The notes under the pieces are model-generated. The model was not told the origin of the DNA and did no database searches. It saw nothing but the letters and a program-made list of their open reading frames with translations. From contig OZ245752.1 in assembly GCA_965227455.1 (NCBI GenBank), positions 5,172,822 to 5,236,821 on the forward strand: DNA of 64,000 nucleotides, written 5' to 3'. The translations under genes and the position numbers were made by a program. This document shows, in pieces, positions 7,047 to 59,903 of the stretch; the stretch's first letter is position 1; every line of letters begins with the position of its first letter. The stretch comes from Alphaproteobacteria bacterium (GTDB lineage Bacteria > Pseudomonadota > Alphaproteobacteria > DSM-16000 > Inquilinaceae).

Positions 7047-8198
7047 TCAGACGTCGTGCACGTAGAGACGGCCCTGGGTGTTGGCCGCTTCCAGCAGACG
7101 GTCGAAGGTCGCGATCGATCCGGCGAGATCGGTCTTGAACTCGTTCCATTCCGAACGCTGGTGGCCGGCCGCCGCGACCCATTCCTCCATCTCCGACGCA
7201 TTCGGTGCGTAGAACTGCACGCCGGCCGCCGACAGCTCGGCCATCGAGTAGGCGCGGGCCGCCGGAACCTTTGCCAGGTTCTGCTGCATGGTGACGTCGG
7301 AGGCGAACTCGATGCCCTCCTGCAGGTCGCCGGGCAGGCTGTTGAACCATTCCAGATTGCAGGAATAGACCTGGGAATCCGGGACCGACCGGTTGAAGGT
7401 CACCCAGGAGAGCACGTCCTTGAAGCCGAAGACGTGCAGCGCCTCGACCGAAGGGTCCAACGCATCGGCCACGCCCTGTTTGATGGCGCTCGGGGTCTCG
7501 CCCCAGGCGACCGGGGTCGGGTTGGCGCCCAGCAGGCGGTAGAACTGCTGCAGGATCTGCGAGCCGGGCACGCGGAACTTGATGCCCTGCATCTGCGCCG
7601 GGGTGCGGATCGGCCCGTCGATGCCCTGGCGCAGGGCGACCACGCGCGGGTCGATGCAGACATACCAGAGCGGCTTGAAGCCCTTGGCCTCGACCTTCGG
7701 GTTCACTTCCGCCGCCCAGGCGTCGGAGGTCACCAGGTTGATGAACTTCTGGTTCTCACCGCACCAGTACGGGATGTTGATCAAATCGACGGTCGGCGCA
7801 AACGGCGCGAAGTTGGACAGCGAGTGCTGTGCCGCCTGGATGGTGCCGCCCTGGACCTTCTGGGCCAGAGCGCCGCCGGCGCCCAGCTGCCCGCCCGGGG
7901 CCAGGCGCACATAGATCCGGCCGTTGGACATGTTCTGGATGTTCTCTTTGAAATCCAGTTGCATGATCGGATAGCTGCGCGACGCGCCCAGGATATAGGC
8001 GGTGGCGACCGTCATGATGTGTTCGGCGGCGTCCTCGCGGTCCCGCTCCTCGCGCGCGTTCTGCGCCGAGGCTTCGGTGGAGCCGAGGGTGCCGGCGGCC
8101 GCCGCGACCACGGCGGCGGTAAAGCCGTATTTGCCGGTGAGTTCGAAGAAACGCCGGCGTTCCGCGGATTGCAGCGTATCCGGATCCCGTGATGTCAT
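7047..8198 (-). CDS. dctP: TRAP transporter substrate-binding protein (DctP family) with a Tat-type signal peptide
   Basis: RRRFF twin-arginine N-terminus, DctP-family periplasmic binding protein length (383 aa), and adjacency to dctQM. Confidence 0.85.
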   Translation of the reverse strand: MTSRDPDTLQSAERRRFFELTGKYGFTAAVVAAAAGTLGSTEASAQNAREERDREDAAEHIMTVATAYILGASRSYPIMQLDFKENIQNMSNGRIYVRLAPGGQLGAGGALAQKVQGGTIQAAQHSLSNFAPFAPTVDLINIPYWCGENQKFINLVTSDAWAAEVNPKVEAKGFKPLWYVCIDPRVVALRQGIDGPIRTPAQMQGIKFRVPGSQILQQFYRLLGANPTPVAWGETPSAIKQGVADALDPSVEALHVFGFKDVLSWVTFNRSVPDSQVYSCNLEWFNSLPGDLQEGIEFASDVTMQQNLAKVPAARAYSMAELSAAGVQFYAPNASEMEEWVAAAGHQRSEWNEFKTDLAGSIATFDRLLEAANTQGRLYVHDV

Positions 8199-8240
8199 GA
8201 TTGTCCTCCCTAGGTATGGGCCGCTTGCCTGCGGCCGGAT

Positions 8241-8456
8241 TCAACGCGCGGCTTCGCGGTCCAGCGCGGCGATGACGAAACAGATGATGGCGGCCAGCAA
8301 TACGAGGAATTCGGCGACGTCGCCGGCATGGACCGGGGTGGTGGCCCCGACCAGGATCGATACCTTGCCGACAATGATGTTCAGGACGAAGAGGCCGAAG
8401 AGGACCACGGAGGCGCGGAAGGCCAGCCGGCCGATGGCTCGCGGATGTTGCGCCAT
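8241..8456 (-). CDS. Small two-TM membrane protein, putative first gene of the TRAP operon
   Basis: 71-aa hydrophobic ORF with good positioning upstream of dctP; no recognisable family. Confidence 0.35.
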   Translation of the reverse strand: MAQHPRAIGRLAFRASVVLFGLFVLNIIVGKVSILVGATTPVHAGDVAEFLVLLAAIICFVIAALDREAAR

Positions 8457-8501
8457 GGTTGCCTCTCCCCGTTTTGTCCGGCCCGTTTCGGGCCTTTGTT
8501 G

Positions 8502-8515
8502 TAAACGTTTACAAG
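8502..8515. promoter_or_regulatory. Perfect 14-bp palindrome TGTAAACGTTTACA, a candidate LacI-family operator in the divergent promoter region
   Basis: Perfect inverted repeat in the 180-bp gap between the minus-strand TRAP operon and the plus-strand LacI gene. A half-site copy (AAACGTTTACA) recurs at about 8664. Confidence 0.45.
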
Positions 8516-8635
8516 CTGAACAGGCTAAGCCAGCGGCGTATTGACGTCAAGCGGTGAACGGCCGCTGGATTGACTCTTCCGCATCCGATATGATCGAATC
8601 CACTGCGGTTTGTAAGAATTTCAGGGTACTAGCAT

Positions 8636-9694
8636 ATGTCGGCGCCTGAGCCGATTGTCAGAAAACGTTTACAGCGACGGCTGACGGATCGCCCGACCCT
8701 GCATGACGTGGCCGCCCTGGCGGGCGTATCGACGGCAACCGTATCGCGCTGCCTGAACGAGGCCGATTCGGTCCGCTCGGAACTTCGCGAGCGGGTCCAA
8801 TCGGCGATTGCAGAGCTGGGCTACACGCGGCACGGCGCCGCCCGGGCCCTGGCCAGCCAGCGCTCCCACGCCGTCGGCGCCGTGGTCCCGACGCTGGACA
8901 ACGCGATCTTCGCGACCGGCATCCAGGCCATGCAGGACCGCCTGTCGACCGCCGGCTACACGCTGCTGCTGGCGAGCTCGAATTACGATGTGGCCGAGGA
9001 GCTCAACCAGGCCCGAAGCCTGATCGAACGCGGACTGGACGGCCTCATGCTGATCGGCGAGGCGCGGCCGCCCGGCCTCTACGACCTGCTTGACCGCAAG
9101 GCAATCCCCTACGTCAACACCTGGACCTACCGGCCGGACAGCCGCCATCCGTCGATCGGCTTCGACAACCGCGGCTCGGCCTATCGCATCGCGTCCTATC
9201 TCATGGATATGGGGCACACGCGCATCGCCATGATTGCCGGACTGAGCGCCGGCAACGACCGCGCGGCCGAACGGCTCGACGGGGTCAGGGAGGCGTTGGC
9301 GGAGCGGGGGCTGGCATTCGGCGACGGCCTAGTGATCGAGAGCGCCTACGCCATCAGCGAGGGGCGCCAGGCGCTGCGGCGCCTGATGGCGGCGGATCCA
9401 CGCCCTACGGCGGTCATCTGCGGCAACGACGTGCTGGCTTATGGGGCGTTGTTCGAATGCCATGCGCTCGGCATCGCCGTGCCGGACGCGGTATCGATCA
9501 CCGGCTTCGACGACCTCGAACTGGCGGCGGAGCTGACCCCGGCGCTGACCACCATGCATGTCCCGTCGGACGCCATGGGCCGGCTGGCGGCGGAATACCT
9601 GCTGCACCGGATCGACGGCCAGCCGGCGCCGGACGCCACCCGTCTCGACGTCGACCTGATCATCCGGGGCTCCACCGGCCCGCCGCCGCGCTAG
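8636..9694 (+). CDS. LacI-family transcriptional regulator
   Basis: HTH (TLHDVAALAGVSTATVSRCLN) plus a sugar-binding domain; 352 aa. Confidence 0.85.
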   Translation: MSAPEPIVRKRLQRRLTDRPTLHDVAALAGVSTATVSRCLNEADSVRSELRERVQSAIAELGYTRHGAARALASQRSHAVGAVVPTLDNAIFATGIQAMQDRLSTAGYTLLLASSNYDVAEELNQARSLIERGLDGLMLIGEARPPGLYDLLDRKAIPYVNTWTYRPDSRHPSIGFDNRGSAYRIASYLMDMGHTRIAMIAGLSAGNDRAAERLDGVREALAERGLAFGDGLVIESAYAISEGRQALRRLMAADPRPTAVICGNDVLAYGALFECHALGIAVPDAVSITGFDDLELAAELTPALTTMHVPSDAMGRLAAEYLLHRIDGQPAPDATRLDVDLIIRGSTGPPPR

Positions 9695-9706
9695 CGGGGG
9701 AGCGGG

Positions 9707-10204
9707 TCAGCCAAGCCGGTCCAGAAGGGAAAACAGCGACGCCTTTTGTCGTTCGGACAGGTGGCGGGATATCCGCCGGTCATGATCGGTCACCAGGGTC
9801 TTGAGACGGTCCAGGGTCCGCGCGCCGGCATCGGTCAGAAAGATTCCGTTGGACCGCCGATCGCCTGGCGGCCGCCGGCGTTCAACGAAACCCATGGCCT
9901 CCAGGCGGTCGATCTTCGCCATGGCGCCGGAACGGGCGATGCCCATGATCTGCCCAAGTACGGTCTGCTTCAGACCCGGATTGGCGCCGATGATCACCAG
10001 CGCGGCAAACAGCGGCGGCGTGATGCCGGTGCCGGCCATGGTCCGATCGAAATCCTCATAAATCGAGATCTGCGCCCGACGCACCGCATAGCCGACCAGA
10101 CCGTCGAGGACGTCGTAGTCGACGCCGGGCCTGTGGGCGTCGAAGCGTTCGCCGTCCCACGCGTCAGCATGCTGGTCGTCCGGCCTCGGTTTCGGAGCGC
10201 TCAT
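9707..10204 (-). CDS. MarR-family transcriptional regulator
   Basis: Winged-helix MarR core (LFAALVIIGANPGLKQTVLGQIMGIARSGAMAKIDRLEAMGFVERRRPPGDRR). The start is placed at the internal ATG (MSAPKP). Confidence 0.8.
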   Translation of the reverse strand: MSAPKPRPDDQHADAWDGERFDAHRPGVDYDVLDGLVGYAVRRAQISIYEDFDRTMAGTGITPPLFAALVIIGANPGLKQTVLGQIMGIARSGAMAKIDRLEAMGFVERRRPPGDRRSNGIFLTDAGARTLDRLKTLVTDHDRRISRHLSERQKASLFSLLDRLG

Positions 10205-30113: not shown

Positions 30114-30234
30114 CCCCTCACCCTAACCCTCTCCCGCAAGGGGAGAGGGAATCCCAGCCGGCCCAGATCGGACTCCTCTCCCCTTGTGGGAGAGGAAGGG
30201 GCCCGCGGCGAAGCCGTGGGAAGGTGAGGGGGCT
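30114..30234. repeat. Family-B palindromic repeat element (CCCCTCACCC ... GGGAGAGGG ... CCCTCTCCC ... GGGTGAGGGGG), copy 1
   Basis: Nested inverted repeats. Five copies in the window share more than 80% of the core sequence. Confidence 0.8.
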
Positions 30235-32572: not shown

Positions 32573-32617
32573 AATCCTTCTCCCAGTTCAGCGGACCCTT
32601 CGGGAAGTCATCCGAAA

Positions 32618-32760
32618 CCCCTCACCCTCCCACGGCTTCGCCGCGGGTCCCTCCCTCTCCCGCGAGGGGAGAGGGGCAAGTAGCGCGCCGGCCCATTTGG
32701 TTCCCTCTCCCCTTGTGGGAGAGGGAGGGACCCGCGCGTCAGCGTGGGAGGGTGAGGGGT
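32618..32760. repeat. Family-B palindromic repeat element, copy 2
   Basis: Same core as 30114-30234. Confidence 0.8.
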
Positions 32761-33130
32761 CTACGAACGACCCCCCAATCCGCAATCAATGTTTCTGTCC
32801 GTGTCGTACGTCGTGCCCTGCAGTCAGAGGATGACCGGAAGACGTCCGACGGTCCGGTGCGGATGCCCTCGGCGCCGCCTCTGCGGACGCGGGCGGCGGG
32901 CGGGGGTGCCGGCCGGCATGACGTCCGGGGACATCAGGGGCCGAACCGGCGTGCCCGCCCGCCTTGCGCGAGCGCTCGGGCGGCGGATCGAGAGCATTCG
33001 GAACACCGTTCCGCCCGGCCCCGCCGCCTCGCCGCGCGGCCGAAGCCTTGCGGTCTGGTGGCGACGCCTGGACGTCTTCCGGCACCCTTCATTGGTTCTT
33101 CGCGTTATGGCGAAACCTGATTTCCAGTCA

Positions 33131-33204
33131 GGCGGATGAGGGGAGTTGAACCCCCGACTCCAAGGTCCGTAGCCTTGTGCTCTTCCAATCTGAGCTACAT
33201 CCTG
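33131..33204 (-). tRNA. tRNA-Arg(ACG)-like sequence. Cloverleaf and anticodon loop CTACGGA are intact. The first two 5-prime acceptor nucleotides do not pair and overlap the CCA of the upstream tRNA-like gene.
   Basis: Reverse complement GGATGTAGCTCAGATTGGAAGAGCACAAGGCTACGGACCTTGGAGTCGGGGGTTCAACTCCCCTCATCCGCC, folded by eye. The 3-prime acceptor strand CATCCGC demands a 5-prime GCGGATG, but the sequence reads caGGATG. Confidence 0.5.
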
Positions 33205-33277
33205 GTTGCAATGGTGGGAATCGAACCCACGACCTCCGAGGCTATCCTCGGCGCTCTGCACGCTGAGCTACATTGCC
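33203..33277 (-). tRNA. tRNA-like sequence with an encoded CCA. It has an Ala-like overall architecture but an atypical 6-nt anticodon loop (GATAGC) and a G1-A72 mismatch; the isotype could not be assigned.
   Basis: Reverse complement GGCAATGTAGCTCAGCGTGCAGAGCGCCGAGGATAGCCTCGGAGGTCGTGGGTTCGATTCCCACCATTGCAACCA. D-arm, T-arm (GTGGGTTCGATTCCCAC) and acceptor stem fold by eye. Confidence 0.4.
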
Positions 33278-35963: not shown

Positions 35964-36110
35964 CCCCCTCACCCGCCCACGGCTTTGCCGCGGGTACCTC
36001 CCTCTCCCACCAGGGGAGAGGGGTATCAACAACGCGCCATGCGAATTGGCCCCTCTCCCCTTGCGGGAGAGGGAGGGACCCGCGCGATAGCGTGGGAGGG
36101 TGAGGGGGCT
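35964..36110. repeat. Family-B palindromic repeat element, copy 3 (between the AAA+ ATPase gene and the 439-aa gene)
   Basis: Same core as the other family-B copies. Confidence 0.8.
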
Positions 36111-39282: not shown

Positions 39283-40359
39283 CTAATTCGCCCCGCCATA
39301 GAGGTTGGCGTCATGTTTCTCCACGACCTTGGCGAAGCGGCGGGCAAAGCGCTCATCCGCCTTGGCCTTCTCCTCCAGCACCTTGCGGGCGAAGACGATG
39401 TTGTCCTCGTGGCCTTCCATCATGTCGGCGATGCGCGACTGGGTGGCCGAGCCGATCGCCGCCATGGCGACCTGCGCCTCCTTGTCGGTCTCGGTGCCGA
39501 TCTCGTTGATCTTGTGGGCGACTTCCTGCTGCTGGGCAGTCTTCAGCGACTTGGTCAGGGCGTCGTACAGCACCACCCGCTGCTTGGTGTCGGTCTGCAG
39601 CTTGTTGATCAGGACCATCTGGGTCGCCGCCTGGTTCTGCAGCGAATCCATCCAGGTCTTGCCCTTCTCGATATAGGTCTCCAGCGTCTGCGACCGGGCG
39701 ATCAGGACCTGCTCGTTCTGCACCAGCTCGTTGTGCTGGGTGTTGATCGCCGCCAGCTCGGATTCGAGCTTGGTGCGCTCGGCGGGGTCGGTGGCCATGG
39801 AGACGCGGTTCTCAAGATCGATGATCTTGGGGTCCAGCGCCTGCAATTCGGCCCGCAGCCCCTCGAGCTCGCCGACCACCCGCTCGCGCTCGTCCAGGGT
39901 GCGGGTCAAATTGCCCTCGACCTTGGTCTTCTGCTCGCTGAGACTGGACAACTGCCCCTGCAGGATCGAGACGATGGTGTTGGACTTGGCGATCAGGTCC
40001 TGAAGATTGTCGTCGATGCTGGCGAAACGGATGCGTTCCGCCCTCATGGTGTCGGCGCGGGCGGTGGAGAACCAGCCGACCACCGTCTCCCAGCCGGTCT
40101 TCTCCCGCATGGAGTTGAATTCCTTGGAGAAACCGGCGGTGACCTCGTCCAGGCTGATGATCAGCTCGGCGATGTTGCCGTTCATCGATTCCGCATGCGC
40201 GTCGACCTGCTCCAGGGTCGCATTCTCGATGTCGATGGCCAGGGTGTCGGTCTTGGCGAGATCGACGCCCGTAAAGGTGGTTGAGATTGCGGCGGCCTGC
40301 TTCTGCGCCTCCGCGACCTGGGCTTCGGCATTGCGAACAGCGGTCTCGAAATCCTGCAT
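39283..40359 (-). CDS. All-alpha coiled-coil protein, 358 aa (TelA/PspA-like in composition only)
   Basis: Heptad-rich Q/E/L/A/K composition throughout; first gene of the cluster. Confidence 0.6.
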   Translation of the reverse strand: MQDFETAVRNAEAQVAEAQKQAAAISTTFTGVDLAKTDTLAIDIENATLEQVDAHAESMNGNIAELIISLDEVTAGFSKEFNSMREKTGWETVVGWFSTARADTMRAERIRFASIDDNLQDLIAKSNTIVSILQGQLSSLSEQKTKVEGNLTRTLDERERVVGELEGLRAELQALDPKIIDLENRVSMATDPAERTKLESELAAINTQHNELVQNEQVLIARSQTLETYIEKGKTWMDSLQNQAATQMVLINKLQTDTKQRVVLYDALTKSLKTAQQQEVAHKINEIGTETDKEAQVAMAAIGSATQSRIADMMEGHEDNIVFARKVLEEKAKADERFARRFAKVVEKHDANLYGGAN

Positions 40360-40548
40360 CCGGTCCCCCGAAATCTCGTTAGAACGAACGAATCACACGC
40401 GAGATATGGGCGGAATGTAGCGGTTTTGCACGAAAAATTGCACGCGATACCTGTGCTTGGCGGCCTTCAGCGAGGACTTTTAGATACTTACGCCTCGGCT
40501 ATGATGGCCGCAAAACGAACACGGAAAGACAGGGGGAGGACGCTCGCC

Positions 40549-42180
40549 ATGGCGGCCAAGAGCAACCCATTCGAATCCGGCCTGGACCGGAACGCGGCCA
40601 ATTACGTGCCGCTGTCGCCATTGTCCTTTCTGCCGCGCACCGCCTCGGTGTTTCCCGACCGCACCGCCGTCATCCATGGCGAATTGCGCCGAACCTGGCG
40701 GCAGACCTATGACCGCTGCCGCAGGCTGGCCTCGGCCCTGGCCCGGCGGGGCGTCGGGCTCGGCGACACGGTTGCCGTGATGGCGGCCAATTCGCCGGAG
40801 CTGATGGAGGCGCATTTCGGCGTGCCGATGGCCGGCGGGGTGCTCAACGCCCTGAACACCCGCCTGGACCCGGCGACCATCGCCTTCATCCTGGAGCATG
40901 GCGAGGCCAAGGTGCTGATCGCCGACCGGGAATTCTCCGCCACGGTCGCCGCCGCCCTGGGACAGATGGATGCCCGGCCGCTGGTGATCGACATCGACGA
41001 CCCGCTGGCCACCGGCGGCGAATTGCTGGGCGAGATGGATTACGAGGCCTTCCTGGACACCGGCGATCCGGATTTCGCCTGGGACCTGCCGGCCGATGAA
41101 TGGCAGGCGATCGCGCTCAACTACACCTCGGGCACCACCGGCAATCCCAAGGGCGTCGTCTACCACCATCGTGGCGCCTACATGAACGCGGTCGGCAATG
41201 TGCTGACCTGGGCGCTGCCGCATCATCCCACATATCTGTGGACGCTGCCGATGTTCCACTGCAATGGCTGGTGCTTCCCCTGGACCGTTACCGCCATGGC
41301 CGGCACCCATGTCTGCCTGCGCCGGGTCGAGGCCAAGGCGATCTATGACGCCATCGCCGACCACAAGGTCACCCATCTCTGCGGCGCGCCCATCGTCATG
41401 GGCCTGCTGCTCAACGCGCCGGAGGACCAGCGCCGGAATTTCGACCATCCGGTGCACATGATGACGGCCGCTTCGGCGCCGCCGGCCGCGGTGCTGGAGG
41501 GCATGGCCGGCCTCGGCTTCGACATCACCCATGTCTACGGCCTGACCGAGGTCTACGGCCCCGCCACGGTCTGCGCCTGGAACGAGGAGTGGAACGCCCT
41601 GCCGCCGGCCGAGCAGGCGACCCACAAGGCGCGCCAGGGCGTCACCTATCCGGTCCAGGAGGGCCTGATCGTCGCCGATCCGGAAACGATCGTGCCGGTC
41701 CCGCCAGATGGCGAAACCATCGGCGAGGTTTTCATGCGCGGCAACATCACCATGAAGGGGTATCTGAAGAATCCCACCGCCACCGAGACCGCCTTCGCCG
41801 GCGGCTGGTTCCACACCGGCGATCTCGGCGTGATGCACCCCAACGGCTATATCGAGCTCAAGGACCGCTCCAAGGACATCATCATCTCCGGCGGCGAGAA
41901 CATCTCGACCATCGAGGTCGAAGGCGCCCTCTACCGCCACCCCGCCGTCCTGGAGGCCGCCGTCGTCGCCAAACCCGACGACAAATGGGGCGAAACCCCC
42001 TGCGCCTTTGTCACCCTGAAACCCGGCGCCGAGACCACCGAAGCCGACATCATCGCCTTCTGCCGCGACCACCTGGCCCATTTCAAATGCCCGAAGACGG
42101 TGGTGTTCGGCGACCTGCCGAAGACATCCACGGGCAAGATCCAGAAATTCGTGCTGCGGGAGAAGGCCAAGGGCCCATAG
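40549..42180 (+). CDS. AMP-dependent acyl-CoA synthetase/ligase (medium/long-chain fatty-acid--CoA ligase-like)
   Basis: AMP-binding motifs (YTSGTTGNPKGV; GWFHTGDLG; GKIQKF). The start is at the ATG preceded by GGGGGAGGA. Confidence 0.85.
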   Translation: MAAKSNPFESGLDRNAANYVPLSPLSFLPRTASVFPDRTAVIHGELRRTWRQTYDRCRRLASALARRGVGLGDTVAVMAANSPELMEAHFGVPMAGGVLNALNTRLDPATIAFILEHGEAKVLIADREFSATVAAALGQMDARPLVIDIDDPLATGGELLGEMDYEAFLDTGDPDFAWDLPADEWQAIALNYTSGTTGNPKGVVYHHRGAYMNAVGNVLTWALPHHPTYLWTLPMFHCNGWCFPWTVTAMAGTHVCLRRVEAKAIYDAIADHKVTHLCGAPIVMGLLLNAPEDQRRNFDHPVHMMTAASAPPAAVLEGMAGLGFDITHVYGLTEVYGPATVCAWNEEWNALPPAEQATHKARQGVTYPVQEGLIVADPETIVPVPPDGETIGEVFMRGNITMKGYLKNPTATETAFAGGWFHTGDLGVMHPNGYIELKDRSKDIIISGGENISTIEVEGALYRHPAVLEAAVVAKPDDKWGETPCAFVTLKPGAETTEADIIAFCRDHLAHFKCPKTVVFGDLPKTSTGKIQKFVLREKAKGP

Positions 42181-42264
42181 GACAACGGTAGGGCGGCCGG
42201 GGCGGGCCGCCGTAAGCATGACACCTGGCGCCCTAGCCGCTGCCCACGGGCGTCATTGCGCACG

Positions 42265-43167
42265 CTATGTGGTGATAAACCCGACCTCCGAATACAGCTT
42301 CTCTTCGATGTGCCGCCATTTGGTATTCATGAGGATCGAGTCGAGTTGCCCGGGTTGGTCCGCGGCACTGTCGACCCGTTGCCGAAGTTCGTCCGTGTCC
42401 GGGACCTCGTCCACGACCCTTGCGAAATAGACCTTCGTTGCCAGCGGCCTGGACGTCTCATCGCTCAGTATCGAGAGGATGCCGTACAGATCCGGGTGCT
42501 CCGTCTCGCCGACCGGAGAAAAGTTGACCAGCCATAATCCCTTGTTGGGGGCGGGCAGCCCAAGCATCTGGAAGCCATAGATGCTCCCGAAGAACAATCC
42601 CCGAAAGGTGATGACGGTACCCTCGTTCATATCGAGGGCCCCCCGGATCGCAACGACCTCCGCCGCCTTGGCGTAAGGCTCGAACGGCTTGATGGTGACC
42701 AACGAGGTGATGAGCCTGCCGGAGACCTCATGCCGGTACCCGATGAACCGGCCACTGAACTTCCTGCGGCTGGACTCCTGGTCGCCCAGTTCCATCAGCG
42801 ACGTGAACTCGCGAAAGAACTGCGCCTGCCGATCCCGAACATCGGGCAGGCTCGGCCGATCCTTCCGGTCGCGCGCCGACTCGCTGTACTCGCCGAAGAT
42901 AGACTTAGTAGCCTCTGGATAATTTGAGAGAAGATAGAAATAGAAACGCTGATCGAAATTGGCGCGAAAAAACGAATACAGACTCGCCGCTTCTCTGGGC
43001 TTAAGGCTCTGAAGCGGGTTCTTCTTTCGTGTAAAGTAACTCCATCTGTTTTCTGCCTGAGCCCCAAGATCCACTTGATCTCGAACAAACTCCTTCTTCG
43101 TACCTGTTATCGCACAGTAGACGTTCACCAATTCTCGAAGCAGGTCCGCCTCCGACCCGGCCCCCAT
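42265..43167 (-). CDS. Hypothetical 300-aa protein in a low-GC islet; no family recognised
   Basis: Clean ORF. AT-rich codon usage, unlike its neighbours. Confidence 0.5.
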   Translation of the reverse strand: MGAGSEADLLRELVNVYCAITGTKKEFVRDQVDLGAQAENRWSYFTRKKNPLQSLKPREAASLYSFFRANFDQRFYFYLLSNYPEATKSIFGEYSESARDRKDRPSLPDVRDRQAQFFREFTSLMELGDQESSRRKFSGRFIGYRHEVSGRLITSLVTIKPFEPYAKAAEVVAIRGALDMNEGTVITFRGLFFGSIYGFQMLGLPAPNKGLWLVNFSPVGETEHPDLYGILSILSDETSRPLATKVYFARVVDEVPDTDELRQRVDSAADQPGQLDSILMNTKWRHIEEKLYSEVGFITT

Positions 43168-43419
43168 TCTGCAATCTCCCGCTTATGCACAGCCTCCTTT
43201 TACACTAAACTGTAATCGCTTCATCCTGCCATGAAAAGTTTCTTTTTGAAGCAGTTAAGGCGCCTCGGGTATGGTAATCAGACCGATGAACTTTATCATG
43301 TGTTGCGTGATAGCGGTGATGGGCGCGGTATTTGATTGCTCATAACTCTCCGCACTCTAGAAGTTTTTTTTGGATCTATATCACGTTCGTGAGTTTTCTC
43401 TTTGCAGATTGGAGCAAGT

Positions 43420-44464
43420 AATGGAACGCCAAGAATTGATGGCCATTGCATTTAGAATGTCCACTGGAAAAAGTGAAGGGGAAATAGAAGTCGACGAGGA
43501 GGTTGGAAGCAAGATATTTTCATTTATGAATAATATACCATTGAATGTAATCGATGAAATAAAAGCAGCGCCTGCGCTGGATGTATTTCCTGTCACTTCA
43601 ACAGAAATATTTGGTGAGAAAATACTGAAAGTAGATCAGCTGCTACTTGATGTCGGCGCTGTTCTAGAGCTTTCAGCATTAGACGAGGATTTCTTAGCTA
43701 TAGTTGCGAAGGAAATTCGATTTCGTGCTCCTGAAGAGCGAGCAATAATTCGAAGGCAATTTACTGGCGTTGATGCGGGCACAGGGGCAAACGGAGCTCG
43801 AGGGCGCGATGGCCAGACTCCTGGGAAAGCGCCTAGAAAGAACAATGGACATCGAGGGGAGGACGGCGGTTCAGGCGGCTCTGGGAATGCAGGTGAAACG
43901 CGACATCTTCCGGATATCTATGTTTTCACTAACGCGATCAAGGAGATAGATAGAAATGACCCGCCATATTTCGTCGACATGGGACTCATTATGCCCGGCA
44001 TTGATGGTGGAGACGGCGGTATTGGCGGCGATGGAGGCAATGGCGGAAACGGTGGGAGTGGCGGAGACGGTGTCGACAGCCTAATCGACTGCAAAGGCGG
44101 GCCTGGAGACGGAGGCCGAGGTGGAAATGCTGGTCTAGGCGGTCGAGGAGGTGATGCCGGCAATGGGGGTGACGGAGCCAACGTCATTTACGTTGCATCG
44201 CCGGATGCGATGAATCTGCTGTCGGCCACTAAGGTTGTTAATAGACCGGGACAGGCTGGACGGCCGGGGCTCGGAGGGAGGCCGGGACGCGAAGGTGCCG
44301 GCGGACCAAGGGGGGGCAGGACGTTCTACTGTCATGGCGGTAGACGCGGATCAGACGGAGTTGTGCCCAACCCATGGACCCTCGGACCGGGTGAAGAAGG
44401 TGAAGGGGGGAAAAAGGGATCGGTCAGTCGGGTTCCTGTTGTTTCGATCGATGACTTGTATTGA
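43420..44464 (+). CDS. Glycine-rich protein with collagen-like G-X-Y and GGX repeats, no signal peptide
   Basis: Acidic ~130-aa N-terminal domain, then GANGARGRDGQTPGKAP ... GGDGGIGGDGGNGGNGGSGGDG ... GRPGLGGRPGREGAGGPRGG. The start is set at the ATG preceded by GGAG; the ORF track begins at 43370. Confidence 0.5.
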
Positions 44465-44795
44465 TTGAAATAATGAAACCTGTATTTGTCGTAGATTATT
44501 TCCTTTTTGCTTTCTTTTGATTTTCAAGGTGGTCGAGCACGTCCGATTTTTGGGCATAACTTGTGCTCGACTGCTTTGAAATCGAGTGCCTTTGCTGCCC
44601 TGGAGCATCACCTGAAAAACACCACGGACTGAATGAGCTAGATCGGCCCGATTGAATACCCTGGCTCCCCTTCGCCGGCTGCTGGGCGCCTATCTTGAGC
44701 GCCAATTGAACGACCGGCCACGATGCCACAACGGTGACGATGCGCAGCACGCTTAGAATTGGGTATGCTGTGCCTGCAACTGATGGAGGCTGGCG

Positions 44796-45692
44796 ATGCC
44801 GAACTTGGCACTAGATTTAGCCAGGGCATTGATTATTCCGGTTCTTGCATTCGCCGCCAATGCGGCACAAGCAGCGGAGGAGACGGTCTCGATCAAGGTC
44901 GAAGGCCAGGCCGTCATCGGTACGCTGGAAATGCCCGACGGCATCGCAAACCCGCCGGCCGTTCTCATGCTCCACGGCTTCACCGCGTCGCGGGACGAGC
45001 TGGGCGTGGCCGAGACCGAGGAAGGCGTCTTCTCCCGCACCGCGCGGGTGCTGGCGGAGAACGGCTACGCCAGCCTGCGGATCGATTTCCGGGGCTCCGG
45101 CACGTCGGAGGGGGCCTGGGCCGACACCACGTTCAGCGGCCAGATCTCCGATGCCGTGGCCGCCGTCGACTGGCTGAAGGCCAGCGGCCGGATCGATGGC
45201 GAGCGCATGGCGGTGCTGGGCTGGAGCCAGGGCGGGCTGGTAGCCAGCCATCTGGCGGCGGCCCGGCCGGAGCTGGATGCGGTGGTGCTATGGGCGCCGG
45301 TGGTGCATCCGATCCAGACCTATTCCGGCCTGCTCGGTGCGGAAATGGTGCAGCAGGCCTTTGCGAGCCCGGCGGAGACCGAGATCACCGCGACCCTGCC
45401 CTGGGGGCCGGAGACGGTGCTGAAGGCCGCCTTCTACCATGAGATGGTGACAACCAGCCCGATCGCCGCGGTCGCCGGCTATCCCGGGCCGCTGCTGGTG
45501 GTCGTGGGGTCGCAGGACACCGTGGTCGCGCCGCAGCCGGCATCGGGCCAGGTGCTGCTCGACTATCACGACGGCGCGGAGAAGCTGGCGGTCTTCGAGA
45601 CCGACCATGTCTGGGGCGCGTTCGCCGGCCCGGCGGTGCTGGACGAGCTGATGGTGCCGACGACGCTGGAGTGGCTCGACACCCATCTGTGA
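44796..45692 (+). CDS. Secreted alpha/beta-hydrolase (dienelactone-hydrolase / BAAT-like)
   Basis: Signal peptide (ALIIPVLAFAANAAQA), a nucleophile-elbow-like GWSQGG, and acid/His residues near the C-terminus. Confidence 0.75.
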   Translation: MPNLALDLARALIIPVLAFAANAAQAAEETVSIKVEGQAVIGTLEMPDGIANPPAVLMLHGFTASRDELGVAETEEGVFSRTARVLAENGYASLRIDFRGSGTSEGAWADTTFSGQISDAVAAVDWLKASGRIDGERMAVLGWSQGGLVASHLAAARPELDAVVLWAPVVHPIQTYSGLLGAEMVQQAFASPAETEITATLPWGPETVLKAAFYHEMVTTSPIAAVAGYPGPLLVVVGSQDTVVAPQPASGQVLLDYHDGAEKLAVFETDHVWGAFAGPAVLDELMVPTTLEWLDTHL

Positions 45693-45709
45693 GGCCGGCC
45701 GGGCGGCGG

Positions 45710-46612
45710 TCACCGGCGCTCCGCCACGAGCGCGAAGACCCACCGACCGATCAGGAAGCCGACCTGCACGACGACCGCGGCGGCGAGGGCCATCATGGCG
45801 ATCGTGACGAGCAGGAACCCGCGTTCGCCACCATTCCAGATGTCCGAGCTCATCTGAATGGACAGTCGTCCGAGCAGCGCGATCAGCACCTGCCCGGCGA
45901 CGGCGACCAGGAAGATCGCGGACGTCCGTCCCGGTGCGAACCGCACCCGCCAGGCAAGCGCCCACGGCACCATGATGGCGGCCGCCGCCGCCAGAAGCAC
46001 CGCGACCTTGGCGGCGAACGAGTCCATGACGATCACCGGCAGTGCTCGGATCAGTCCCGCCCGCTCCGTCGCCTTCCAGTCCGAGCGCAATCGGTCGAAC
46101 GCCTGGCCCCCGCCATCCTCCGAGATGCGCCGGACCAGGGATTGCGGCAGGCAGCGGGCTCGCTCGTCGTCCCAGGATGGCGACGATCCTCGGCGAGCCA
46201 TGGCGCTGAGGCAGTGGTCAAAGGTGAGGATCTCGTAGACGCCCGACGTGACCTCCCGCCCCAGATGCCGCGCAATCTCCGGGACCGACAACCAGCTGCT
46301 CCTCGGGGGCACAACCACGGGCCGCGTGTCGTGCGCGCACATGAAGGTGCGGTAGAGGCGCTCCCGCAAGACCATGGACTCGGTGCACACGCCATCTGTG
46401 CAATTGGCCGCCAGCACGATGAGTTCCGGTTGTCCGGCGCAGGACAGCGCGAGTCCGGTCCGTGGGATCACCAGCACGGCGAGAGCGAGAAGCAAGAGAA
46501 GGCCGCGCGGGAAGCGGCGCTGCCGCCGAGCCGGTGGCGGCAAGTCTTGATGGCCATTCGCCGTCGGATGGCTGCGGCTGTGTGGCGATGTGTCCACGGC
46601 GGGTCCAGTCAC
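45710..46612 (-). CDS. Hypothetical membrane protein (several C-terminal TM helices). The start codon is uncertain; the 5-prime part may be non-coding.
   Basis: Hydrophobic C-terminal third (VAVLLAAAAAIMVPWALAW ... LLVTIAMMALAAAVVVQVGFLIG); low-complexity N-terminal third. Confidence 0.35.
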   Translation of the reverse strand: MTGPAVDTSPHSRSHPTANGHQDLPPPARRQRRFPRGLLLLLALAVLVIPRTGLALSCAGQPELIVLAANCTDGVCTESMVLRERLYRTFMCAHDTRPVVVPPRSSWLSVPEIARHLGREVTSGVYEILTFDHCLSAMARRGSSPSWDDERARCLPQSLVRRISEDGGGQAFDRLRSDWKATERAGLIRALPVIVMDSFAAKVAVLLAAAAAIMVPWALAWRVRFAPGRTSAIFLVAVAGQVLIALLGRLSIQMSSDIWNGGERGFLLVTIAMMALAAAVVVQVGFLIGRWVFALVAERR

Positions 46613-46692
46613 GGCGTGGTCCGGGCGGTTGCGCCATGCGCGAGATCAGCTTCGATCATTCCTGTTAAACGATTGCTAAGTCCGGACTGACG

Positions 46693-47383
46693 GTGGGCGG
46701 CGCCGGAGTCGCCTTCGCGGCGCTGGCGGCGCGCGCGGCCAAGGCGGACGATGACGAATCCCGCAAGGACATGGTCAACCGCGGCGGCCTGTTGAATGTC
46801 GGCGACTACTTCACCGTGAGCTGGCAGCGGGTCCAGGACCCCGAGGCGGTCAACGGCCGGGCTTTCGATTCCGCCCCGGACACCGCCATCTTCTCCCGCG
46901 GCGAGGGCTGCTGGGAGGATGACGGGCTGATCTACTTCGTCTCCACCGATGGCGGCCCGGCCGAGCTGGGGCAGGTCTGGCAGTACGATCCGCGCGCGGA
47001 GGTTCTGTATCTGCTCTACGAGGCCAGCGATGCGACGGAGGTCGACGGGCCGGACAATCTGGCGGTCAGCCGGCGGCATCCTGCTGTGCGAGGATGGCGG
47101 CTCCAATCCCAAGCGGCTGATCGGCCTCAGCGAGGACGGTCAGACCTTCCCCTTCGCCGAGAACCGCATCGTGCTGAGCGAGGCCGATATCGCCACCATC
47201 GACGCCGTGTTCCCAGGCACCCAGGCGAATTTCTGAGACAACCGGGATGCCGGCGGCGCCGGCGACTACCAGGGCCGGGAGTGGGCCGGCGCCACATTCT
47301 ATCGGCGCTGGTTGTTCGCCAACGTCCAGTCCCCCGGTGTCACCTTCGCCATCCGCGGACCCTGGGGCCGCGGCGCGCTGTAG
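46693..47383 (+). pseudogene. Frameshifted 3-prime remnant of a PhoX/DUF839-family (beta-propeller phosphatase-like) gene
   Basis: Three consecutive frames carry DUF839/PhoX C-terminal sequence (GEGCWEDDGLIYFVSTDGG...QVWQYDP // LCEDGGSNPKRLIGLSEDGQTFPFAEN // GREWAGATFYRRWLFANVQSPGVTFAIRGPW). The N-terminal ~400 aa are absent. Confidence 0.55.
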
Positions 47384-47986: not shown

Positions 47987-48189
47987 TGGTCCTCCGCGAC
48001 GTGACGATCTTCTGTTGGGGACCCGCGGCACATGCGGGCAGAGCACGTGATTTGAAAACCAATGGGATTGAAAGACAGTCACTTGGCCGGAATCTGTGAT
48101 GGTGCTCACACCTGCGGAGTACGCCCCATGGTGGAGCCAAGAGTAGAGGACCGTCATTGTGATCCCCGAATTGGTGCGGTTGGCTGCCG

Positions 48190-48972
48190 TCAGCGATACC
48201 GCAGGAACGGATGGTCGAAGCTATTCGATTTGGTGCGGTCCAGCAGACGTATTCCCTCGTCATAAGGCGGCGTATTCCTTAGAAGCCGAAGTAACGGTGC
48301 GATATGGCTTCTGGTCAGATGCACGCCTTTTTCGTCATACAGCCCACGACGCTTGGCGATGTGGTCCGAGGTAGCGAGGATGTCTCTATACAGCTCCGAC
48401 GCGACCTGCATGACCTCCTGAACGGCACCATGATGATGCAGATATACGGCCGCTGCCAGATAGCCGGCCGCTTCGCCGCGCATCTCGAATACCCGCCTCC
48501 TGTTCAGGTCGATCACCGCATGCACCGCCTCATGAATGATGAGGGAGCGCAGCTTAAGACGCTGCTTCCGTGATCCATTCCAACTCGAATAGAAGAGCGT
48601 CGTATCGAATTCGAATTTCTGCCACTCCGGATCATAAAATGCCGAATAGTTCTCTTTCTGCAGATCCGAAGTTTTCACTCCCATCCGCTCGGTCTCGATC
48701 AGGCGGCCTACATAGCGCAGGCGCTGTTCATCCACATGCAGGCGGTCCGTCCGGCCGACGAAAAAGTCGATATGGCCGATCGCAGCGTCTTCCAGCAGGA
48801 ATCGTCCCACCGCCTTGCTCAGCTTGAAGGCGATTGGCGTTTCTTCGCTGGAGCCGGCACCCGGTCTGGCGTCACGCCTGCCGGCCCGCAAGGCCACGTA
48901 GGATTCCTGGGTATGAAGATCCGCGCAGAACGGCCCAGGGCCGTATTCATGAGGGGGTCGATTAGATCTCAT
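48190..48972 (-). CDS. Hypothetical protein with an HExxH motif (putative zinc metallopeptidase-like). The start is uncertain.
   Basis: LIIHEAVHAV motif, with a downstream E/H-rich segment (EMRGEAAGYLAAAVYLHHHG). Confidence 0.4.
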   Translation of the reverse strand: MRSNRPPHEYGPGPFCADLHTQESYVALRAGRRDARPGAGSSEETPIAFKLSKAVGRFLLEDAAIGHIDFFVGRTDRLHVDEQRLRYVGRLIETERMGVKTSDLQKENYSAFYDPEWQKFEFDTTLFYSSWNGSRKQRLKLRSLIIHEAVHAVIDLNRRRVFEMRGEAAGYLAAAVYLHHHGAVQEVMQVASELYRDILATSDHIAKRRGLYDEKGVHLTRSHIAPLLRLLRNTPPYDEGIRLLDRTKSNSFDHPFLRYR

Positions 48973-49303
48973 CGCCCAGCATCCTGTAACGAGGAGAATG
49001 CCATCCGCAGGCCGGCTCTCCTCTGGATCATGCTCGAGAATAGGCTCGGGCGCCGGGCATTGGATGTGACGAATCCCACATTGCACGCGGGCGAACGGAG
49101 ACAGTGCTTGCCATTCATGCCCGGGTCACCGCCGCCGTGCCGCCCGAAATAGCCAGGCGTCGACCCTCTTGTTTCGAATTCCACCGCCGATTCCGCATGG
49201 CTGCCCTGCGCCTGGCGGGACTGTATTTCCCGGGATCGCGATGTAGATGCCTGGGCGAGACGGTGATGCCTCTGTTCCGCAACCTTGAGGAGGTGGCCCG
49301 CGC

Positions 49304-51835: not shown

Positions 51836-51982
51836 CCCCCTCACCCAGCTCCGGCTAAGGCTCGGCCACTGGCCTCGCCAAGCCTTCGCAACCCTCTCCC
51901 CAAGGAGAGGGGAGAGCGGCGTTGCGAGACTATCCCTCTCTTAGGGGAGAAGGAGGGACCCGCGAAGCGGGAGGGTGAGGGG
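51836..51982. repeat. Family-B palindromic repeat element, copy 4 (more divergent)
   Basis: CCCCTCACCC ... GGAGAGGGGAGAG ... CCCTCTC ... GGGAGGGTGAGGGGG. Confidence 0.7.
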
Positions 51983-52064
51983 GAACGTCTCGGGTAGATT
52001 GGTGACCCGGAATCGAAAAAGGCGCCTCCGAAAGACGCCCTTTCAATGCCGGCTAGCGCGGACG

Positions 52065-52292: not shown

Positions 52293-52376
52293 GGTCTTGC
52301 GCTCCGCGAAAACAGGCGCGGTATATAGCCAAGCTGACCGAGGGATGCAAGCGCAGTCGAAGGATGTTCTTTGAGC

Positions 52377-52835
52377 CTACCGAGCCTTTGGGTTCTCAGG
52401 TCGACCGATGATCGTCCAGTAGGTCAGTCCGGCCAATGTGCCCGCGAGGCCGCAGGACCCGCAGACGGCTACCAAAGCACGAACAAGAGGCTCGCCAGCG
52501 TCCAGGAACAAAAGGGCGTAGGGCACGGAAAAGGCAAGGCCAATGAGGGCACCGGCGCAGGCTTCTGCGTAGCCGCGAGGGACACGGGTGAGATGGAATA
52601 TGAACGCGGCTAGCAGGGTGGGAATGAACGCCATCCCGGCAACGAAGATTCCGAGAACCAATCCCTTACCCAGGACACTCGCGACCGCATGAGACGCGTC
52701 GGCGATGCCTCTCGGTGGCAGAATACCCAGCCCAATTGTGGTTCCGGCCACATAGGACGCCACGATGTACGCCATCGTGGGACGAATGATCGCCAGCCAA
52801 ACGCATCTCAATCCAGTTCTCGGGTCGGGAGCCAT
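52377..52835 (-). CDS. Hypothetical 4-TM membrane protein (paralogue 1)
   Basis: Shares a TRVPRG ... CxGAxxG block with the adjacent gene. Confidence 0.4.
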   Translation of the reverse strand: MAPDPRTGLRCVWLAIIRPTMAYIVASYVAGTTIGLGILPPRGIADASHAVASVLGKGLVLGIFVAGMAFIPTLLAAFIFHLTRVPRGYAEACAGALIGLAFSVPYALLFLDAGEPLVRALVAVCGSCGLAGTLAGLTYWTIIGRPENPKAR

Positions 52836-52919
52836 CGCATTACCTAGTCGAAGATCGGGAGATTCATCGGCCTGGCGTTCGCCGCGATTTACCGCAGGGC
52901 TTCGATCAAGACGGCCCCG

Positions 52920-53390
52920 TCAGAACGAGGACGACGGTCGTCGGGCAGTGGCCCTTGGATTGCGTGGACAGCCGACGAGCAGCCAATAGACCAGCCCGGC
53001 GACGGCACCCATCAGGGAGAAGGTGGCAAGTTGATACAATATTGTGCCGAGTGGGACGGCGGGCGAATAGATGAAGACGAATGAGAGGGCTGGGCCCAGG
53101 AATGCGCCAAGACAGGTCTCGCCGATACCTCGCGGAACTCGTGTCCGGAGCAGGATCGCGGCCGCCAACAGCACAGGGAGCAGACAGAATACCGCAATGA
53201 CCAATGCGATGACCGGGAGCAGGCCGAGATAGTCCGTCGTGAAGCCGGAGGATTCGAATATCGCATCCAGGAGAAACATCATGGTCGCGGCCGCAAGGCA
53301 GGCAACGCAATAGGCGAAGAGAGGGCGTCCAATCGCCGACCAGGCTGTTTGCAGGTGGCTGAAGTCATAGGTCTGCATGGCGATCTCCAA
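52920..53390 (-). CDS. Hypothetical 4-TM membrane protein (paralogue 2)
   Basis: LRTRVPRGIGETCLGAFLGPALSF resembles LTRVPRGYAEACAGALIGLAFSV of its neighbour. Confidence 0.4.
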   Translation of the reverse strand: MEIAMQTYDFSHLQTAWSAIGRPLFAYCVACLAAATMMFLLDAIFESSGFTTDYLGLLPVIALVIAVFCLLPVLLAAAILLRTRVPRGIGETCLGAFLGPALSFVFIYSPAVPLGTILYQLATFSLMGAVAGLVYWLLVGCPRNPRATARRPSSSF

Positions 53391-53695
53391 TCACCTCTTA
53401 CCTTGGGTTGACGCCCCAACATTCGGACAGAACGCCTTATCGAGACATGAGTTTACATCAGTTTTCACCATTGTAACAGAACTTTCTGTACTAACAGAAA
53501 TTATTGTCTCGAACTCTCGTATTGCCCGCCGGGATTGAGCGGCGCCCGCCCTCTCCAGCGGTGCAACTTGTTGCCCCGTCGGGCGATTGCTATATCAGGG
53601 GCGGGTCTAGGTCGTCGCTTTGGGGGGCACCGATTGGCGGCCCGTTCGGGCAGGCAGCAAGGGTGTCGATCGGCGTGTTCCGCGAATCCACCTAC

Positions 53696-59682: not shown

Positions 59683-59727
59683 AGGTCAGATGGCCATTCG
59701 CCGGTGCGAATGAAGCGGGTTCCTAAG

Positions 59728-59866
59728 CCCCCTCACCCTCCCGCTACGCGGGTCCCTCCCTCTCTCGCAAGGGGAGAGGGGCAACAAAGATTGCGCGCTA
59801 CCTATCCCCTCTCCCCTTGCGGGAGAGGGAGGGACCCGCGCGTCAGCGTGGGAGGGTGAGGGGGCT
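59728..59866. repeat. Family-B palindromic repeat element, copy 5 (between the MotA-like and MotB-like genes)
   Basis: Same core as the other family-B copies. Confidence 0.8.
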
Positions 59867-59903
59867 TCGAAAATCACTTCGGGGTTGCCCGTCCGACTCC
59901 GCT

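Follow-up and report, generated by a model that had tools for sequence, protein, structure and literature searches.

The locus examined here lies in a 64,000-nucleotide stretch of contig OZ245752.1 from a bacterium of the Inquilinaceae (Alphaproteobacteria), hereafter called the window, in which an islet of low guanine-plus-cytosine (GC) content separates the gene of an AMP-binding acyl-CoA ligase/synthetase from that of a secreted alpha/beta hydrolase. Two divergently transcribed genes occupy the islet, one encoding a protein of 300 amino acids (orf300) and the other a glycine-rich (Gly-rich) protein of 347 amino acids. The question raised by this arrangement is whether the two genes were acquired as one functional module, as a first-pass annotation had proposed, or independently, and what the Gly-rich protein may do. 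The results indicated that the islet is a strain-specific variable hotspot between two conserved genes and that it holds a mosaic of two unrelated cargo genes, of which the Gly-rich gene belongs to a widespread family with an unusual predicted fold.

The islet and its two cargo genes

The GC content of the islet was 0.538, compared with a mean of 0.657 for the 64-kb window. In 300-bp windows it was 0.40-0.52 over approximately 42800-44750 and 0.65-0.72 in the flanks, and in 500-bp windows (mean 0.657, sd 0.045) the window-wide minimum of 0.408 was located at 43201, within the AT-rich tract previously reported at 43180-43700. The tetranucleotide distance, calculated in 1.5-kb windows, reached its maximum at 42251-43251, where it was 4.3-5.1 standard deviations over the mean, making this the top outlier of the 64 kb. 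The GC content at third codon positions (GC3) was 0.43 for the Gly-rich gene and 0.73 for orf300, whereas the ligase and hydrolase genes on either side reached 0.86-0.87; this confirms the foreign codon usage of both islet genes. The divergent arrangement of the two open reading frames (ORFs) was also confirmed (Table 1).

A scan with the hydrolase protein, using one genome per species, identified two close relatives, both metagenome-assembled genomes of Inquilinaceae (L005 and L006), which are syntenic with the window across tens of kilobases. The ligase gene is syntenic in both (DNA identity 86-88%; its translation probably begins at an ATG further downstream than annotated), and the hydrolase protein is 88% identical in L005 and 80% identical in L006. 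The gene identities assigned earlier to the two flanks agreed with their Pfam matches. DNA homology with both sister genomes ended at 42167-42173, in the final codons of the ligase gene, and returned at 44862-44863, about 22 codons into the hydrolase gene. The spacer between the two genes measured 1.8 kb in L005 and 2.3 kb in L006 and consisted of different DNA, which was GC-depressed too. That of L005 carries, at 8474-9946, the gene of a low-GC 243-amino-acid protein without a family match, followed by a Tae4-family amidase gene (Pfam 5.9e-22); Tae4 is an amidase effector family of the type VI secretion system (T6SS). That of L006 encodes, at 7744-9895, a PsiE-family membrane protein, an unknown 240-amino-acid protein with a weak match to phrog_4049, and an LpxR-like fragment that covers the C-terminal part of the model only. 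The three spacers showed no mutual similarity by blastn or tblastx. Since each sister genome holds unrelated cargo in the same spacer, the site is a variable hotspot. An islet kept with the same boundaries in all relatives, which had been named beforehand as the observation that would speak against acquisition, was seen in neither L005 nor L006; in both, the islet is absent and other cargo fills the spacer.

The first 22 or so codons of the hydrolase gene (44796-44861), which encode the n- and h-regions of its signal peptide, are non-syntenic, and the N-termini of the hydrolase differ in all three genomes. These differences indicate that the exchanges reach into the signal-peptide codons of the neighbouring gene. 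Because these codons have been replaced too, the islet was probably filled by recombination through its flanks. Among the hallmarks of genomic islands, atypical composition and absence from close relatives (the two sister genomes) were found, whereas an integrase or transposase gene, tRNA-adjacent insertion and flanking direct repeats were not: no integrase or transposase gene is present in the islet, no attachment-site (att)-like or flanking direct repeats exceeded chance at the islet, and the nearest tRNA genes lie 9 kb away. Foreign composition and absence from both sister genomes support the horizontal acquisition that had been proposed. The site resembles accessory and defence hotspots in its conserved flanks, in the different low-GC cargo of each genome and in the conflict-type cargo of a sister genome (Tae4); it differs in that three genomes were compared, that integrase, tRNA and att repeats are lacking, and that no cargo was recognized by PADLOC. 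Taken by itself, the islet is an unremarkable small hotspot of variation, and it offers a clean case of cargo turnover between conserved genes that rewrites the signal-peptide codons of a neighbour.

Of the two islet genes, orf300 is a near-orphan. Only two relatives were found among approximately 15 billion proteins, namely P0212 (91% identity, on a 4.2-kb contig) and P0076 (64% identity, on the 2.1-kb contig L004), and a profile search of PDB and of a database of 5.8 billion clusters added no further ones. The ratio of nonsynonymous to synonymous substitution rates (dN/dS) between orf300 and P0076 was 0.14, indicating that orf300 is a real gene under selection. Its product matched nothing in Pfam, NCBIfam, PADLOC or PDB, and the same held for its N- and C-terminal halves in individual Pfam scans at E <= 10. 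Nothing similar was found in plasmids or phages, and the PHROG match was insignificant (E 0.019). The earlier description of a 300-amino-acid protein with no recognizable family thus stands. The AlphaFold2 (AF2) model of the protein had a predicted local distance difference test (pLDDT) score of 43.6 overall and of 60-82 over residues 1-90, with the N-terminal 90 or so residues predicted to be helical; a regulatory role for orf300 is conjectural. GC3 is graded along the gene (0.56-0.58 in codons 1-100 and 0.76-0.86 thereafter), a feature shared by the homologous DNA of L004, and most substitutions relative to P0212 fall within the first 100 residues. The blastn homology with the L004 contig extends from 42416 to 43250, that is, to 83 bp upstream of the orf300 start, and then stops. 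The AT-rich region between the two islet genes presumably holds the promoters of both; no sigma-70 consensus match was detected in it, and no canonical promoter was found in the islet.

To account for the adjacency of the two genes, it may be supposed that they form one acquired functional module of the toxin/immunity, effector/chaperone or regulator/target type. Such a module would fit their divergent orientation around a common AT-rich control region of 253 bp, the Tae4 T6SS-effector-family gene at the same hotspot in L005, the position of one Gly-rich family member just downstream of a DUF2169/PAAR-like T6SS cluster, and the predicted helical N-terminus of orf300, which could be a DNA-binding domain. 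However, the conserved co-occurrence that marks toxin- or effector-immunity modules was absent from the 12 loci with Gly-rich homologues and from the one orf300 locus. In the former, judged by called genes and their Pfam content, neither an orf300-like gene nor any recurrent neighbour was present, and for 6 of the 12 loci tblastn and tblastx searches of the flanks out to 3.5 kb likewise revealed no shared neighbour. In the latter (the L004 contig, which encodes the 64% homologue P0076), the approximately 500 bp of upstream sequence contained no Gly-rich gene when compared with 188 family proteins. Moreover, orf300 has a 91% relative, yet nothing in the database of 5.8 billion clusters is more than 45% identical to the Gly-rich protein, which indicates that the two genes were not co-inherited. 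The difference in GC3 (0.73 vs 0.43), together with the internal gradient of orf300, indicates that the islet is a mosaic, and neither protein gave a toxin, immunity, helix-turn-helix (HTH) or PADLOC match. A functional module is therefore very unlikely, and the proposals of a two-gene module and of a toxin/immunity-like pair were not upheld. Within the inspected contigs, the two islet genes are unrelated solitary cargo brought together as a mosaic, and not a functional pair. This conclusion, taken together with the variable nature of the islet, is held with considerable confidence.

The Gly-rich family and its predicted fold

The Gly-rich ORF lies where it had been annotated, but its product has 347 rather than 348 amino acids, since the real start is the ATG at 43421, with the ribosome-binding site (RBS) GGAG 6 nt upstream. 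A word-indexed search found 74 homologues. When a profile was run against 1.84 billion representatives clustered at 50% identity, it returned 3035 at E <= 1e-3, the weaker tail of which may take in unrelated Gly-rich proteins, and 364 at E <= 1e-30; the hits are essentially all full length, at 300-370 amino acids. The protein itself matched nothing in Pfam or NCBIfam, neither islet protein matched a model of PADLOC-DB 2.0 at E <= 1, and the N- and C-terminal halves of the Gly-rich protein matched nothing in Pfam at E <= 10. When 191 family members were compared with Pfam, no domain was found, the only signal being a sub-threshold Collagen match in 39 of the 191 (best E 1.8e-4). Against the PDB sequences, the family profile picked up low-complexity artefacts only, namely GGS linkers and fragments of collagen. 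Source annotations read 'hypothetical protein', apart from one Sphingobium member that is called 'Collagen-like protein' in UniProt. Accordingly, the Gly-rich protein is an intact member of a widespread, unannotated family of about 340 amino acids. Membership of a known housekeeping family, which would have counted against the view of the islet as foreign, was thus seen for neither islet protein in Pfam, NCBIfam or PADLOC.

The family has a regular anatomy (Table 1). Residues 1-114 are acidic (22 D+E vs 13 K+R), in agreement with the acidic N-terminal domain noted earlier, and the remainder alternates Gly blocks with other segments. Block A varies in length across the family (37-44 residues) and contains the invariant residues G147, G150, G153 and G159 (numbered as in A1, one higher than in this protein). 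It is followed by a variable segment with a conserved LPxIYI strand and then by block B, within which the run quoted in the first-pass annotation (GGDGGIGGDGGNGGNGGSGGDG) was located at residues 196-217. The 8-residue linker between blocks B and C ends in Cys224, which is present in 178 of 180 relatives; a variable segment separates blocks C and D, and block D is followed by Cys304 (175 of 180 relatives), short triplet runs and a terminal strand. Blocks B, C and D have constant lengths of 25, 26 and 23 residues (10th-90th percentile of the 180 relatives), and column conservation in these blocks is 0.52-0.65, compared with 0.30-0.37 elsewhere. The triplet runs in the window protein number 4, 6, 9, 9, 8, 3 and 4 triplets. 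Over 188 proteins, the power of the glycine signal was 1.37 at period 3 and <=0.15 at all other periods (0.12 at period 9). Position X of GGXGG was occupied by N in 19%, D in 17% and R in 15% of cases (51% in total) and by A in 8%. The invariant or near-invariant columns comprise Gly, two Cys, one Pro and the start Met, and the window copy retains every invariant Gly and both Cys. The proposed check for repeat-number variation in the Gly-rich region was negative: the islet DNA contains no tandem repeats and the lengths of blocks B-D do not vary. The Gly blocks are thus structural elements and not slippage tracts.

The AF2 model of the Gly-rich protein, built from a 27-sequence alignment, had a pLDDT of 90.6 and a predicted template modelling score (pTM) of 0.76. 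In the model, residues 1-32 are disordered, regular strands occupy 53-113 and single strands follow, whereas the Gly blocks, at pLDDT >=90, are neither helix nor strand by DSSP. With high confidence, the predicted fold is a beta-solenoid-like N-terminal domain, the later coils of which are interleaved with four or five Gly-triplet blocks. Foldseek searches of the PDB were headed by 7jjv, a nine-helix polyproline II (PPII)-bundle antifreeze protein (AFP) from Granisotoma (E 1.8e-5), 3bog and 2pne, all with low template modelling (TM) scores, and placed gp38 at rank 16; the nearest solved analogues are the springtail PPII-bundle AFPs and beta-helix adhesins. In PPII bundles and polyglycine II (PGII) sandwiches, the Gly at every third position faces the interior (PMC9436101; PMC13243192; bioRxiv 10.1101/2023.11.25.568672). 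The pattern of this class, in which several segments of at least 2-4 triplets have Gly as every third residue, was found in the Gly-rich protein. On the grounds of period-3 Gly, the lack of an alpha or beta assignment and the antifreeze-protein matches, the Gly blocks would be PPII/PGII-type helices with Gly inward and polar N, D and R outward, and by triplet count there would be roughly 10-13 of them. Judged from the model, a PPII-hybrid fold of this kind is somewhat favoured. To our knowledge, natural Gly-rich PPII/PGII bundles comprise only a handful of unrelated proteins. They include the springtail AFPs, the gp38 tip, the glycine-rich domain of ALK/LTK, the Obg N-domain, acetophenone carboxylase and the predicted PGRS domains. 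Such bundles are of interest for protein design, and if the predicted fold is true, a compact bacterial family of single-domain size, with hundreds of diverse members, constant block lengths and a confident model, would provide a tractable system and a sequence signature for finding more.

Several known proteins with similar features were considered as possible identities of the Gly-rich protein. The springtail AFPs (sfAFP, 2pne/3bog; Granisotoma rainieri, 7jjv) share with it Gly at every third residue, GGX richness, a compact structure that is neither alpha nor beta, and conserved Cys, and might suggest an ice-binding function of the PPII-bundle type. They are, however, arthropod proteins of 80-130 amino acids, consist of PPII helices only and present a flat Ala-rich ice-binding face, whereas the protein studied here has 347 amino acids, a beta-solenoid-like N-terminal domain and interleaved strands, exposes N, D and R, and is bacterial and mobile; no sequence homology between them was detected. 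With N, D or R at 51% of the outward X positions of GGXGG and Ala at just 8%, a flat Ala-rich face was not found. The TM-scores are low, the matches to ice-binding beta-helices are generic solenoid matches, the family hosts include mesophilic Sphingobium and Methylobacterium, and the window copy is not exported. An antifreeze role is accordingly highly improbable. A remnant of a phage tail fibre or tailspike receptor-binding protein, either a gp38-like polyglycine sandwich or a beta-helix spike, had also been suggested. In the T-even gp38 adhesins (Salmonella phage S16, 6F45; PP01), conserved Gly-rich motifs likewise alternate with variable segments, the triplet count would suit a small sandwich of about ten helices, and Foldseek gives weak matches to them. 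Nevertheless, there is no sequence or Pfam match to gp38, the gene context contains no tail-fibre genes, and a tail-fibre match in PHROG reached E 0.031 only. No tblastn match was obtained in 50,697 phage genomes, and a single-protein scan of IMG/VR for close relatives found none. The prophage-borne copy described below lies outside the tail module, on the opposite strand between replication and terminase modules; most members appear to carry Sec or twin-arginine translocation (Tat) signals, which virion proteins lack; and the protein stands alone at about 340 amino acids, without an attachment domain. The expression 'phage-tail-fibre-like' therefore holds as a loose architectural analogy, without any phage or IMG/VR sequence match, and descent from such a fibre is hardly to be expected.

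The term 'collagen-like' was correct for the GXY triplets of the protein, and a Scl/BclA-type trimeric fibre would also accord with the sub-threshold Collagen matches and the UniProt name mentioned above; similarly, two isolated GGxGxDxUx-like strings in the protein recall the calcium-binding beta-roll of RTX proteins. The protein itself, however, gives no Collagen match even at E <= 10, and a significant model match with a long (GXY)n tract is not seen: its blocks have only 8-9 triplets (the longest uninterrupted run being 9), are GGX-rich and of fixed length, and are interleaved with beta-strands in a compact monomer model with a pLDDT of 90.6. Against the beta-roll, the family-wide glycine period is 3 and a peak at 9 is missing, and in place of tandem nonapeptides, RTX-like strings average 0.47 per protein. 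A collagen-type fibre or an RTX roll is thus the least probable of the identities considered. Resemblances to three other groups were also limited. The PGRS domains of PE_PGRS proteins, which are predicted PGII sandwiches (PMC9436101; PMC13243192), likewise show GGX-GGX repeats in which X is N or D, glycine sandwiches modelled confidently by AlphaFold, and an association with the surface or export. In PE_PGRS proteins, a PE domain with a GRPLI linker precedes the polymorphic GGA/GGN domain. The Gly-rich family lacks a PE domain and the ESX context; it has Gram-negative hosts and a beta-rich N-terminal domain, and its blocks are fixed at 25, 26 and 23 residues, whereas PGRS length is highly polymorphic. 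For the beta-helix adhesins (EtpA, pertactin, HMW1 secretion domain, IcsA) and tailspikes, only about one third of the Gly-rich protein aligns; it is far smaller, has no two-partner secretion (TPS) or autotransporter domain, and its Gly-triplet blocks have no counterpart there. The best matches in BFVD were two giant-virus proteins, Terrestrivirus A0A3G4ZNF8 (labelled DUF7932) and Mimivirus LCMiAC02 A0A481Z1I0 (E 1e-6 to 1.6e-8, probability 1.00, 278-316 aligned columns), but these exceed 1000 amino acids and their TM-scores normalized to the query are 0.26-0.29. Membership of DUF7932 was rejected, as none of the 191 family members matches the model; no paper mentioning DUF7932 was found. The Gly-rich protein is thus a member of none of the named families tested, although it is comparable to the small structural class of Gly-rich PPII/PGII bundles and to binding scaffolds of the beta-helix type, and its family is an unannotated, fairly widespread, mobile putative variant of a rare fold class.

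Export, genomic context and possible function

In agreement with the earlier description, the Gly-rich protein of the window has no signal peptide: the best 10-residue Kyte-Doolittle mean was 1.25, and the longest ORF is immediately preceded by an in-frame stop. By a hydrophobicity heuristic, an N-terminal h-region was strong in 103 of 188 family members, moderate in 33 and lacking in 52, and RR motifs suggestive of Tat signals were observed in P0004, P0006, P0020 and P0055. Overall, about 60-70% of the relatives would carry Sec- or Tat-type signals, and thus the label 'cytoplasmic' suits the window copy and is atypical of its family. Signal-less members are scattered through the family (the nearest neighbour was signal-less in 39% of cases, close to the overall signal-less frequency of 40% by the criterion of that comparison). 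The N-terminus that precedes the core has 37 residues in the window copy, compared with a median of 38 in signal-bearing and 20 in signal-less relatives. In the frame of the Gly-rich gene, at approximately 43289-43345 (+), a hydrophobic mini-ORF, MNFIMCCVIAVMGAVFDCS, is followed by two stops located some 25 codons before the ATG; it may be a vestige of a former signal or lipoprotein peptide, or may have arisen by chance. Apart from this dubious in-frame mini-ORF, no frameshifted signal peptide was found upstream of the gene.

From these observations, the window gene could be regarded as a decaying passenger whose signal peptide was lost after transfer, and the islet as genomic flotsam. The missing h-region in spite of a pre-core N-terminus of signal-bearing length (37), the mini-ORF and stops upstream, and the unameliorated GC3 of 0.43 are compatible with decay. 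The ORF is, however, intact and full length, has a good RBS, and has kept all invariant Gly and both Cys. Signal-less members (28-40%) are common and scattered, and one of them is prophage-borne, so that the signal-less state looks tolerated or functional. Decay is therefore considered unlikely.

The genomic contexts of Gly-rich homologues were surveyed at the 12 loci. On a prophage-like contig (L021, 3782-6020), the signal-less P0016 lies on the opposite strand, between a lambda-P-type replication module and HNH/terminase/portal genes, in a group of three genes with an 84-amino-acid protein and a YfbU-family protein, which is the arrangement of a typical moron. At other loci the gene has IS110, Tn3 and DDE transposases on both sides (L022), adjoins a tyrosine integrase and a ThiF/Multi_ubiq pair (L023), or lies on the Methylobacterium plasmid pMRAD06 next to a resolvase, with a type I secretion system (T1SS) nearby (L020). 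It is also found 52 bp downstream of a DUF2169/pentapeptide/PAAR-like/TPR cluster (L025), adjoining NsnC (PADLOC 8.9e-73), AAA_15/DUF3696 and GmrSD (L012), and near the type I restriction gene HsdR and an HTH_Tnp_1 protein (L001). In this small sample, the Gly-rich gene has the behaviour of a lone accessory gene, often carried in DNA that is mobile or associated with conflict.

Since only Gly, two Cys and one Pro are conserved, a non-enzymatic scaffold is suggested, and from its sequence the Gly-rich protein is most likely a rigid scaffold for binding or shielding. The gene would spread as single-gene cargo in prophages, plasmids, transposon-rich DNA, and defence or competition islands. Sec or Tat signals would direct the protein to the periplasm or cell surface in most hosts, and the window copy would act in the cytoplasm or have lost its export signal. 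Given its distribution in mobile and defence-adjacent DNA, the protein may serve at the envelope in conflict or adhesion, for instance in exclusion, immunity or surface binding; such an envelope-conflict function is tentative. More specifically, the family might constitute a new, widespread natural PGII/PPII bundle with a beta-solenoid that serves as a rigid decoy or shield in the envelope (in the cytoplasm where signal-less), blocking phage adsorption or injection or neutralizing an incoming effector. This proposal is quite unlikely, but if true it would define a new class of one-gene exclusion or immunity factor on a rare fold. Because it recurs as solitary cargo in mobile or conflict-associated DNA, the gene is a candidate to be included in screens for phage defence or exclusion.

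We give a probability of about 0.55 to the composite of these conclusions, that is, a foreign variable islet with two unrelated genes, one of them encoding a PPII-hybrid scaffold with an envelope-conflict role. A number of observations weigh against it. No integrase, flanking tRNA or direct repeats explain the arrival of the islet. About 28-40% of family members, the window copy included, are signal-less, which fits poorly with an obligatory envelope role, and the conservation of the two Cys in signal-less members too argues against a simple periplasmic disulfide. The context survey comprised only the 12 loci, a small sample without a background control, and among these, Sphingomonas L014, L024 and largely L015 have no mobile-element or defence hallmark; the surroundings of these three and, largely, of L018 are ordinary chromosomal ones. 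The alignment behind the AF2 model contained only 27 sequences, and no annotated homologue points to a function.

Coordinates and other features of the window

The coordinates of the islet, its genes and their flanks are collected in Table 1.

Table 1. Features of the islet and its flanks (positions in the window)
Feature	Position	Strand	Extent	Remarks
AMP-binding acyl-CoA ligase/synthetase gene	40426..42180	+		Conserved left flank; Pfam AMP-binding 1.4e-76, AMP-binding_C 1.7e-24
Variable low-GC islet	42174..44861		2.69 kb	Bounded by the points where synteny with L005 and L006 is lost
orf300	42265..43167	-	300 amino acids	Near-orphan; 2 relatives
AT-rich divergent intergenic region	43168..43420		253 bp	GC 0.40-0.47
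Gly-rich gene	43421..44464	+	347 amino acids	Longest ORF from 43370; identical to database protein P0001
N-terminal domain (acidic; predicted beta-rich, first solenoid-like coils)	43532..43762	+	Residues 38-114
Gly block A	43763..43894	+	Residues 115-158	GXX runs at 122-131 and 143-158
Gly block B	43997..44071	+	Residues 193-217	9 triplets, GGX form; conservation 0.63
Gly block C	44096..44173	+	Residues 226-251	9 triplets; conservation 0.65
Gly block D	44249..44317	+	Residues 277-299	8 triplets; conservation 0.52
Imperfect inverted repeat	44522..44581	+		58 nt past the stop codon of the Gly-rich gene
Secreted alpha/beta hydrolase gene	44796..45692	+		Conserved right flank; Pfam Peptidase_S9, Hydrolase_4, Abhydrolase_1, 1e-14 to 1e-16

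The hairpin with a 9-bp stem previously noted near 44540-44580 was recovered downstream of the Gly-rich gene. Its core is a perfect 9-bp pairing of GTCGAGCAC (44532-44540) with GTGCTCGAC (44563-44571) around a loop of 22 nt, and it extends to 19-nt arms with 84% complementarity. The minimum free energy of the 176-nt segment 44465-44640 was -47.1 kcal/mol, with a z-score of -2.5 relative to shuffled sequence. An intrinsic terminator was not called at the inverted repeat; since it has no T-tract, the hairpin is not a canonical intrinsic terminator, and it may be a transcript-end or stabilizing stem-loop. Within the islet as a whole, no canonical terminator was found, and Rfam gave no match.

Elsewhere in the window, three segments within the synteny with L005 did not align with that genome, namely 45700-46742, 48119-49162 and 52358-53554 (GC 0.69, 0.59 and 0.59, respectively); these are possibly further small variable islets. 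A GC-rich palindromic repeat of approximately 145 bp occurs at 30127-30234, 32617-32763, 35965-36110 and 59726-59871, with a partial copy at 51933-51983, and also in L005 (1882-2031) and L006 (4836-4981). It matches itself in both orientations and resembles repetitive extragenic palindromic (REP) elements or miniature inverted-repeat transposable elements (MITEs); no copy flanks the islet. Two adjoining tRNA genes are present at 33131-33277 (-). ARAGORN calls them, with a 2-nt overlap, tRNA-Arg(ACG) and 'tRNA-???', the latter having an unusual anticodon of two bases; each scored 47-48 bits with the Rfam tRNA model. Just upstream of the ligase gene, 39283-40359 (-) encodes an apparently coiled-coil protein of 358 amino acids with weak Pfam matches, which is kept in L005.

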